Sequence record: PP456878.1
Direction: 5' to 3' (one strand)
Length of the DNA stretch: 64,000 nt
Source of the DNA: Pseudomonas phage vB_PaePAO1-KEN19
In this document: positions 36,842 through 41,602 of the stretch, in pieces
Numbering within the stretch: position 1 is the stretch's first letter
Layout: every line of letters starts with the position of its first letter
Translations under genes and position numbers: made by a program
The notes under the pieces: generated by a model
What the model was told of the DNA's origin: nothing
The model's input: only the letters and a program-made list of their open reading frames with translations
Database searches by the model: none

Positions 36842-36859
36842 GCCTCCCCAAAGGGAGGC
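36842..36859 (-). terminator. hairpin gcctccc-caaa-gggaggc
   Basis: GC hairpin directly downstream of the thymidylate synthase stop. Confidence 0.6.
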
Positions 36860-39675: not shown

Positions 39676-39933
39676 CTATTTATTTACACAGATTAGAGTA
39701 TGTTCTACTTTACTGGTACTAGAAGAAAAATAACGTAATAGAACACCATCGCTGATTTTTACAGTCTCTACATTATTACGAATAGCACTTGCTTTAGCTA
39801 GTTTTTGAATACGCTCAATCGCGCTAAAACAAGTAGTCATGTCAGAGAACTCAGTAGTTGACTGCGATGCACCATTGGCTTGATAACCAGCGATACTGAT
39901 ACTACTAAAAAGAATTGCTAAAGTTGCATTCAT
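39676..39933 (-). CDS. secreted small protein with signal peptide (85 aa)
   Basis: MNATLAILFSSISIAGYQANGA. ATGA overlap with the upstream SspB-like gene. Confidence 0.5.
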   Translation of the reverse strand: MNATLAILFSSISIAGYQANGASQSTTEFSDMTTCFSAIERIQKLAKASAIRNNVETVKISDGVLLRYFSSSTSKVEHTLICVNK

Positions 39934-40838
39934 TTCTTACCACCTTTAATAACAGTGAGTTTTGGTGGACCAGTAGGACGAGAAGGTTTATTAATAATAA
40001 TCTGCGAATTGGAAGAATTATTGAAATCCTCAACCATCTTATTTACATCATTGTCAAATGAATTAGATGTATTATCACCCGAGTCCACAGTTGATTCACT
40101 AACCACATTTGAAATAGGGTAACTGAGGAGTTCCATCATAAGTACATTGATGTTATCCTGATAGTTTTCATTACGTGTACAATTAATAACCCGCTCACAC
40201 CAATCCATAATTAATTCTGGTGCATTCTGTTTAATTGCAGTTACCGCTACTCTAATATGTGCATCTAATTCTGGATTACTAAATTCAGTTACTCTGTTAA
40301 TGGCGCTTTCAATCATCTGATCATGCTCATTCTCAGATGTATTCCTTACAACTAACTTACCATTAGTGGTATCGGCTTTATTTTTAAAATTAACCTCAGT
40401 GACATTACCTACGGTAGTTAATACTGGGTTTTTGTCAACTACATTATTAACAGTTCCTTCTAATGTTGCACGAATAGTATCTGCATTGAGATATCTATCC
40501 ACTAGCGGCATTTCAAAGAATGCGTTAGAATTATCATCAATAGGTGTAACTACACCCAATACTGCATAAAGAGGAAGTTTAATACTGACCCCAACTCCAT
40601 TTACTGTTACATTGAAAGAGATATATTCGTCACTGATATAAAAATTCTTTGCACAGCGTGGATGGATATTGAAAGTGATAGTGTGATCTTCTTTCGCATG
40701 CTTTAGAGCTACCTCAGATAAATCAGGTACTAATTGAGTATGTGCTACAATTAGAATATCTCTGAAGTTATTCTCAAGAAACCAATCATAGGTAGCTCGA
40801 AGAATATGGCCAGTAAGTAATGATTTTACCTTTAGCAT
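39930..40838 (-). CDS. SspB-like ClpXP adaptor homologue with a long Asn/Ser-rich linker (302 aa)
   Basis: The N-terminal domain aligns with E. coli SspB: ILRATYDWFLENNF versus LLRAFYEWLLDNQL. FNIHPRCAKNF...ISFNVTV...GVSIKLPLYAVLGV aligns with LNIAPRAVGNL...VRFNARF...QVSVPLAAVLAI. A flexible N/S/D-rich linker follows. The C-terminus PKLTVIKGGKK resembles the SspB ClpX-binding tail ALRVVK. Confidence 0.7.
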   Translation of the reverse strand: MLKVKSLLTGHILRATYDWFLENNFRDILIVAHTQLVPDLSEVALKHAKEDHTITFNIHPRCAKNFYISDEYISFNVTVNGVGVSIKLPLYAVLGVVTPIDDNSNAFFEMPLVDRYLNADTIRATLEGTVNNVVDKNPVLTTVGNVTEVNFKNKADTTNGKLVVRNTSENEHDQMIESAINRVTEFSNPELDAHIRVAVTAIKQNAPELIMDWCERVINCTRNENYQDNINVLMMELLSYPISNVVSESTVDSGDNTSNSFDNDVNKMVEDFNNSSNSQIIINKPSRPTGPPKLTVIKGGKK

Positions 40839-41420: not shown

Positions 41421-41537
41421 ATTGAAAGTATACCACAACCACTTATGAATTATATAACAAATCACTATAACTAATAATAGTAGTGAATGTAATGCTAGCA
41501 TTATAACTACCTATTTTGATATGACTTGACCAAATAT

Positions 41538-41570
41538 GTAATATAGATTTCAAAAAAAATTTAATGCAAT
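41538..41570 (-). promoter_or_regulatory. conserved early promoter (family 2), TTGCAT-N18-TATATTAC
   Basis: The + strand reads gtaatatagatttcaaaaaaaatttaatgcaat, nearly identical to the motif at 26424. Confidence 0.45.
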
Positions 41571-41602
41571 AAAGGAGAGCTAAATAGCTCTCCTATTTAT
41601 GC

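Follow-up and report, generated by a model that had tools for sequence, protein, structure and literature searches.

A diverged SspB-like protein with a ClpX-binding-type tail encoded by a phiKZ-like Pseudomonas jumbo phage

The gp232 locus

In a stretch of 64,000 nucleotides from Pseudomonas phage vB_PaePAO1-KEN19 (sequence record PP456878.1), which was analysed at its full length and is called the window here, two overlapping open reading frames (ORFs) encode the 302-residue protein gp232, a relative of the bacterial ClpXP adaptor SspB, and a small protein of 85 residues (Table 1). Both ORFs were found exactly where a preliminary description of the sequence had placed them, and the stop codon of gp232 shares the tetranucleotide ATGA with the start codon of its downstream neighbour. 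The 2-kb surroundings of the two ORFs showed 99–100% identity with 46 phiKZ-type jumbo phages of Pseudomonas aeruginosa, and the window is therefore derived from a nucleus-forming jumbo phage of the phiKZ type rather than, as originally assumed, from a T4-like phage. Across the 46 phiKZ-type genomes, the gp232 protein is at least 97.7% identical.

Table 1. Features of the gp232 locus, with positions in the window (CDS, coding sequence; aa, amino acids; pLDDT, predicted local distance difference test score; XB, ClpX-binding)
Feature	Position	Strand	Basis or remark
gp232 CDS (PHIKZ232), 302 aa + stop	39930..40838	minus	ORF list; 99% identical to PHIKZ232 of AF399011
gp232 residues 1–112, SspB-type substrate-binding domain; modelled extra helix to residue ~128	40503..40838	minus	
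gp232 residues 113–168, short helices (113–128), then low-confidence Asn/Thr/Val-rich stretch	40335..40502	minus	pLDDT 34–40 at 130–167
gp232 residues 169–240, predicted four-helix bundle, phiKZ lineage only	40119..40334	minus	helices 169–184, 189–205, 207–218, 226–238
gp232 residues 241–285, Asn/Ser- and acid-rich disordered linker, 45 aa	39984..40118	minus	composition, pLDDT <40
gp232 residues 286–302, tail SRPTGPPKLTVIKGGKK; XB-like core LTVIK at 39945..39959	39933..39983	minus	aligns with canonical SspB termini
85-aa ORF (PHIKZ232.1 + 232.2 in reference annotation)	39676..39933	minus	ORF list; hydrophobic N terminus, two Cys
Hairpin, then T-tract + TATATTAC: candidate terminator and candidate early-type promoter	41538..41594	minus	sequence reading, pattern and hairpin scan

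The N-terminal domain of gp232 resembles SspB

The resemblance of gp232 to SspB had been proposed from motifs recognised by eye, and database searches revealed these motifs to be real and significant. A phmmer search against all PDB sequences was led by ten SspB chains (E = 1.4e-8 to 5e-7, gp232 residues 10–113), with E. coli SspB (PDB code 1ox9) as the best match over gp232 residues 11–108 (E = 1.4e-8). The NCBIfam models of the ClpXP specificity-enhancing factor matched gp232 with E = 8e-13 (best model NF008762), the Pfam family SspB (PF04386) with E = 4.5e-5 and PHROG 8945, which is named "SspB-like", with E = 5.7e-4. A word-indexed homologue search with gp232 yielded 2 proteins and a 22-sequence profile yielded 12, while a profile search of 1.84 billion representative proteins gave 146 matches. 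From the match designated P0005 downwards, these proteins cover the N-terminal region of gp232 (residues ~5–175) with SspB-like N termini, and the majority of them finish in an XB-type tail.

Structure prediction with AlphaFold2 was initially based on an alignment of 3 sequences; the resulting model had a mean pLDDT of 49.8 and was excluded from the fold search. The alignment was then deepened with 21 Pseudomonas SspBs, which were retrieved with a query 80–88% identical to real ones. The model obtained from the final alignment of 34 sequences showed a pLDDT of ~80 for residues 8–128. A comparison of this model with the PDB by Foldseek, which had been set beforehand as the test of the SspB assignment, identified SspB in 13 of the 13 top matches (E ~1e-6; target template modelling (TM) scores of 0.69–0.78). 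Judged by sequence and by predicted structure, the N-terminal domain of gp232 is an SspB fold.

Good sequence conservation among SspB proteins is limited to the dimer interface and the groove that binds the ssrA tag (PMC9963277). As reference we used the 31 columns conserved to at least 70% across 96 canonical SspBs. The same residue is found in gp232 at 15 of these, and another 6 hold a conservative or recurrent variant. The dimer interface of SspB is built by helix 1, where residues R14, A15, Y17, W19, E22 and N23 of gp232 match the family consensus; this helix is largely conserved. Among the other retained columns are N57, P60, R61, F75, G81, P89 and A92. As part of the groove is kept (N57, P60, R61, F75, G81 and P89), ssrA-tagged translation products are possible cargo of gp232.

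The C-terminal tail resembles the ClpX-binding tail of SspB

The C terminus of gp232 reads ...NKPSRPTGPPKLTVIKGGKK, where residues 294–298 form the motif LTVIK and are followed by GGKK (39933..39944). The XB peptide of E. coli SspB has the sequence RGGRPALRVVK (PMC3983244). In the SspB family, the motif L-x-[VIL]-[VI]-K forms the exact C-terminal end of 96 out of 147 proteins, and LTVIK itself is found in 5. The sequence RP[ST]GRPSLKVVK ends 120 Pseudomonas SspB proteins, and a tail of the form PPRP[STN]GRPSLKVVK is encoded in 78 of 80 Pseudomonas-group genomes. The tail peptide of the host SspB, PPRPSGRPSLKVVK, was deduced from these related species.

Aligned with the RPTG variant of the Pseudomonas SspB tail, the gp232 segment PSRPTGPPKLTVIK (followed by GGKK) is equal at 9 of 14 positions, and the alignment with genuine XB tails holds residue for residue, including the preceding RP-x-G-x-P. 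The LxV(I/V)K segment that the preliminary description had noted at the C terminus is indeed present as LTVIK, and the tail is nearer to that of Pseudomonas SspB than had been recognised there. At the level of sequence, the tail of gp232 resembles the XB tail of the SspB of its host. Of the 142 ORFs of at least 60 aa in the window, only gp232 has an XB-like motif within the C-terminal 12 residues, where 5e-4 would be expected by chance given the composition of gp232; an ending with GGK was found in none of the other ORFs of the window.

Related proteins in jumbo phages

Phage proteins of 148–318 aa were identified that combine an SspB-type N-terminal domain with the tail signature S-R-x-x-G-x-P-x-L-[TR]-[VL]-I-[KQ]-G-G-K-[KA]. 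Searches with tblastn located them in the Pseudomonas jumbo phages PA1C, PS119XW, BRkr, PhiPA3 (gp270), Psa21, D6, RVTF4 and Phabio and also in Serratia phages, where gp200 of Moabite (locus L085, 1207..1692) ends with RPNPFSVIKGGKE. A Foldseek search of viral models added Noxifer, 201phi2-1 (two proteins), the Erwinia phages Rebecca and PhiEaH1, Aeromonas phage phiA8-29 and Vibrio phage VAP7. The gene of PhiPA3 gp270 is syntenic with that of gp232, as it is located between a gp229 homologue and thymidylate synthase. Overall identity of gp232 with its jumbo-phage relatives is only ~20–27%. The best-conserved part of these proteins is the XB-like core together with GGK, which shows a mean pairwise identity of 0.74. 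The signature L-[TR]-[VL]-I-[KQ]-G-G-K fits the tail of gp232 as well as those of 18 out of 18 relatives, Moabite, PhiPA3 and RVTF4; the GGK is invariant in all 18 and is present in Moabite, too.

Two further motifs characterise the phage proteins. Most relatives, including P0014, P0124 and P0065, carry the motif PLLDFG ~20 residues before the tail. The version of gp232 is degenerate (MVEDFN), and the linker segment KMVEDFN (K267–N273, 40020..40040) aligns with it. A motif of the type FPxPNMER is located just past the SspB domain in most relatives and reads FFEMPLVDR in gp232. Neither motif has a counterpart in bacterial SspB. The jumbo-phage SspB-like proteins, including gp039 of Erwinia phage RAY, share the layout and tail signature of gp232, but their middle regions are unlike that of gp232 and the four-helix bundle of the phiKZ proteins is present in none of them.

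For 201phi2-1 (B3FJK8 and B3FJL0) and phiA8-29 (A0A1W6DY71 and A0A1W6DXU6), the BFVD contains two SspB-fold proteins of unequal length per phage. A scan of the window with hidden Markov models (HMMs) detected one such protein, gp232. Two fragments closely similar to gp232 were also retrieved (P0003 and P0155), one of 164 aa with ~70% identity and one of 104 aa with 85% identity; the latter comes from a Klebsiella pneumoniae assembly, in which its contig measures 312 nt. Phage sequence present in bacterial assemblies seems to be the source of both.

The middle region and the linker

Between the SspB-type domain and the tail, gp232 contains regions of different predicted character. The four helices at residues 169–238 were modelled with a pLDDT of ~76 and appeared also in the first, shallow model; they may provide a second binding surface. 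The linker of residues 241–285 consists of 40% Asn and Ser and 16% Asp and Glu. The long Asn/Ser linker of the preliminary description can thus be maintained for residues 241–285, whereas residues 169–238 are predicted to form the bundle and residues 130–167 a stretch of low model confidence.

Weak matches of the middle region to the Pfam families FUR and DUF445 (E of 0.017 or worse) were discarded. A likeness of residues 129–198 (40245..40454) to the staphylococcal protein SSL7 (NCBIfam, E = 5e-6; PDB code 1v1o, E ~1e-3) was likewise rejected. It extends from the Asn/Thr/Val-rich stretch of low confidence into the first bundle helices and is probably compositional.

Comparison with known systems

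With bacterial SspB (PF04386; PDB codes 1ox9, 1ou8 and 8et3), gp232 shares the dimer helix, a disordered acidic or polar linker and, at the C terminus, a basic XB-type segment (P-x-L-x-V-[VI]-K). At 302 aa it is about twice as long as the bacterial proteins (135–165 aa) and, unlike these, contains an extra helix, the low-confidence stretch and the four-helix bundle between domain and linker. Furthermore, most bacterial SspBs stop exactly at the Lys of the XB motif, whereas GGKK follows in gp232. Identity between gp232 and SspB from other Pseudomonas species is only 23–27%, so the gene was not captured recently from the host.

The similarity to SspB as such is not a novel finding, contrary to what the preliminary description had implied. 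The GenBank note of PhiPA3 gp270 reads "similar to stringent starvation protein B" since 2011, the records of phages Churi and Bobae name the gp232 protein "stringent starvation protein B", the records of RVTF4 and Moabite use similar SspB-type names, and PHROG 8945 carries its annotation accordingly. In the literature, gp039 of Erwinia phage RAY was described as a cytoplasmic protein and called an SspB-like ClpXP adaptor (PMC10299810). The T4-like phage pf16 of Pseudomonas putida encodes an SspB homologue, gp18, which was treated in a paper of 2017, and its interference with functions of the host SspB was proposed from modelling only (PMC5587285); this may be the T4-like case that the preliminary description had in mind. 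The pf16 protein closely copies the host SspB apart from a short linker deletion (PMC5587285), whereas gp232 belongs to an old, strongly diverged lineage and carries added domains. ClpS homologues of jumbo phages (PMC7824862) resemble gp232, as interpreted below, in combining a phage adaptor with a host AAA+ (ATPases associated with diverse cellular activities) protease, but they differ in fold, protease (ClpAP) and degron class. As far as we found, the conserved tail extended by GGK, its closeness to the Pseudomonas SspB tail and the four-helix insertion confined to the phiKZ lineage are apparently undescribed so far.

Possible function of gp232

gp232 is a phage-encoded SspB homologue that has diverged far from the bacterial proteins, and it is produced in the host cytoplasm during infection of P. 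aeruginosa. On balance, we lean towards the interpretation that it brings cargo to host ClpXP, or modulates this protease in some other way, and changes its substrate choice. A gp232 dimer would dock onto the N-terminal domains of host ClpX via its tails, would hold a bound polypeptide beside the ClpX pore and could in this way alter the set of proteins degraded by ClpXP during infection. The protein was detected in infected cells by size-exclusion chromatography coupled to mass spectrometry (SEC-MS; PMC10449902, supplement); it was overrepresented in a shell-enriched sample and was not found in virions (PMC10449902). Most of six mNeonGreen fusions, among them gp232, were diffuse outside the phage nucleus and not on its shell, which places gp232 in the cytoplasm where ClpXP is located (PMC10449902). 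Binding of ssrA by gp232 is possible, although the sequence is not predictive in this respect. Because the A-R-F of the bacterial groove reads V-T-V in gp232, recognition of some other degron has at least the same likelihood.

Several observations weigh against an adaptor function. The scores of gp232 are below the curated cut-offs, namely 24.0 bits compared to a gathering score of 27 for Pfam PF04386 and 48.7 bits compared to 202 for NCBIfam NF008762; with E-values that are nevertheless significant, gp232 is to be regarded as a distant homologue and not as an equivalog. Matches in fold and in sequence are not independent lines of evidence, since the AlphaFold2 alignment included SspB homologues. 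Altered groove columns are A74V, R75T, F76V and E97I (E. coli numbering), and in the same numbering the conserved column G101 is changed to Asn as well. The XB-like motif PPKLTVIK ends four residues (GGKK) short of the extreme C terminus, and its last Lys is replaced by Gln in 11 of 18 phage relatives; a simple XB model explains neither the invariant GGK nor the frequent Gln. The tail of the host SspB was deduced from 78 related species, because SspB of P. aeruginosa was not among the 120 Pseudomonas SspB proteins or the 80 loci returned. The SEC-MS study assigns gp232 to shell-associated fractions of high mass and does not mention ClpX in its main text (PMC10449902), and our search of the literature on gp232 and phiKZ SspB found no functional study and no test of ClpX binding or degradation.

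The same tail evidence would fit a protein that blocks ClpXP or acts as a decoy, an option which the preliminary description had raised as well. In that case, the host-like tails would occupy the N domains of ClpX, perhaps with sequestration of tagged proteins, and no hand-off would follow; degradation that depends on adaptors and the N domain would be shut down, which might protect phage proteins or stop host responses triggered by the protease. The changed groove residues are in agreement with this, and the ~130 additional residues between domain and tail, including the bundle, could spoil the tight geometry of SspB-ssrA-ClpX delivery (PMC9963277). However, a pure competitor for the tail-binding site needs neither a peptide-binding domain nor a dimer helix, yet all phage relatives retain both, and the adaptor layout is kept in all of them while the linker length differs widely (161–318 aa). 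We regard a blocking function as rather unlikely. A further alternative, which we rate as still less probable, is that gp232 binds peptides by its SspB fold but does not cooperate with ClpX; its tail and the PLLDFG-type motif would then dock onto a different host or phage machine, e.g. at the shell of the phage nucleus. The invariant GGK, the Gln that often replaces the XB Lys and the phage-specific PLLDFG lack a counterpart in bacterial SspB, and gp232 co-fractionates at high mass in addition to its enrichment in the shell-enriched fraction (PMC10449902). The diffuse localisation of the fluorescent fusions off the shell (PMC10449902) and the residue-for-residue alignment of the tail with genuine XB tails, including RP-x-G-x-P, argue against such a partner. 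Elution at high mass does not separate these models, because ClpXP itself is a large complex.

A resemblance by chance, or a decaying gene remnant without function, would be in line with the scores below the curated cut-offs of Pfam and NCBIfam. Conservation of gp232 across the 46 phiKZ-type genomes, the syntenic homologue in PhiPA3, the relatives in Pseudomonas and Serratia jumbo phages and the detection of the protein in infected cells render this explanation extremely improbable, and chance resemblance is excluded for practical purposes.

One can tentatively speculate that the nucleus-forming jumbo phages have a dedicated lineage of adaptors in common. The altered tail of these proteins, with its XB-like core, the invariant GGK and a PLLDFG-type motif upstream, might together with the reshaped groove redirect ClpXP, or a different AAA+ machine of the host, away from ssrA products and towards particular host proteins, for instance factors of defence or division; in the phiKZ lineage, the four-helix bundle could be an extra module for cargo selection. 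Phages of the phiKZ type enclose their DNA in a protein "nucleus", and phage and host proteins in the cytoplasm stay exposed to host proteases. A phage adaptor of ClpXP would thus be a direct handle on how the phage reshapes protein turnover of its host, and it would constitute a simple testable system of a single protein, a 17-residue tail and a single host protease. With the likeness to SspB already on record and phage-encoded protease adaptors not a new idea, the practical value is modest.

Transcription of the gp232 region

The intergenic region 41502..41602 contains a hairpin (41573..41594) and the sequence TATATTAC (41538..41545). These elements are located ~700 bases upstream of gp232 on the coding strand, and the candidate promoter lies ~35 nt upstream of the start of PHIKZ230.2. 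The combination of T-tract and TATATTAC agrees with what we take to be the consensus of phiKZ early promoters. It also fits the published description of these promoters as T-rich with an extended -10 element (PMC8244752). In the window, TATATTAC occurs 15 times compared to 8.6 expected occurrences. Hairpin, T-tract and TATATTAC are candidates for a terminator followed by an early-type phiKZ promoter of the gp232 unit. The next strong terminator-like hairpin on the minus strand was found at 36842..36859, past the thymidylate synthase gene; gp232 may accordingly belong to an early transcription unit that spans PHIKZ230.2 to PHIKZ235. The temporal class of gp232 was deduced solely from the promoter-like sequence. 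Transcription of phiKZ is carried out by RNA polymerases of the phage itself, and a scan for sigma-70 promoters, which detected fewer sites than in shuffled sequence (17 compared to 25.5), is for this reason irrelevant.

The downstream ORF

The 85-residue product encoded downstream of gp232 belongs to PHROG 32080, the function of which is unknown. It has an uncharged N terminus with a hydrophobic stretch of 15 residues, two conserved Cys and candidate cleavage sites at SIA|G or YQA|N, and is plausibly a secreted or periplasmic mini-protein with a putative signal peptide. The secreted, co-transcribed mini-protein proposed in the preliminary description is hence plausible as far as secretion is concerned, while its tie to gp232 consists only of tight operon packing. 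In a divergent relative (locus L002), the ORF is 78% identical (66 of 85 residues) and the ATGA overlap is preserved, while gp232 is only 61% identical, which indicates that the small ORF is under selection. A functional link between the two proteins was rejected, as the pair is limited to the phiKZ lineage and the ORF contains a stop codon in the reference phage.

This stop codon results from codon 24 (39862..39864), which is CAG in the window and TAG (amber) in the phiKZ reference (locus L001, 6906..7163), and it explains why PHIKZ232.1 and PHIKZ232.2 were annotated separately there. Among the 46 phiKZ-type records, two phiKZ reference records gave the lowest tblastn bit score; the TAG was read directly in the reference only. 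In PhiPA3, RVTF4 and Moabite, other genes take the place of the 85-aa ORF. The gene that follows the SspB-like gene in PhiPA3, gene 271 (locus L083, 4614..5366), carries an annotation of similarity to a macro domain (C-terminal domain of histone macroH2A1).

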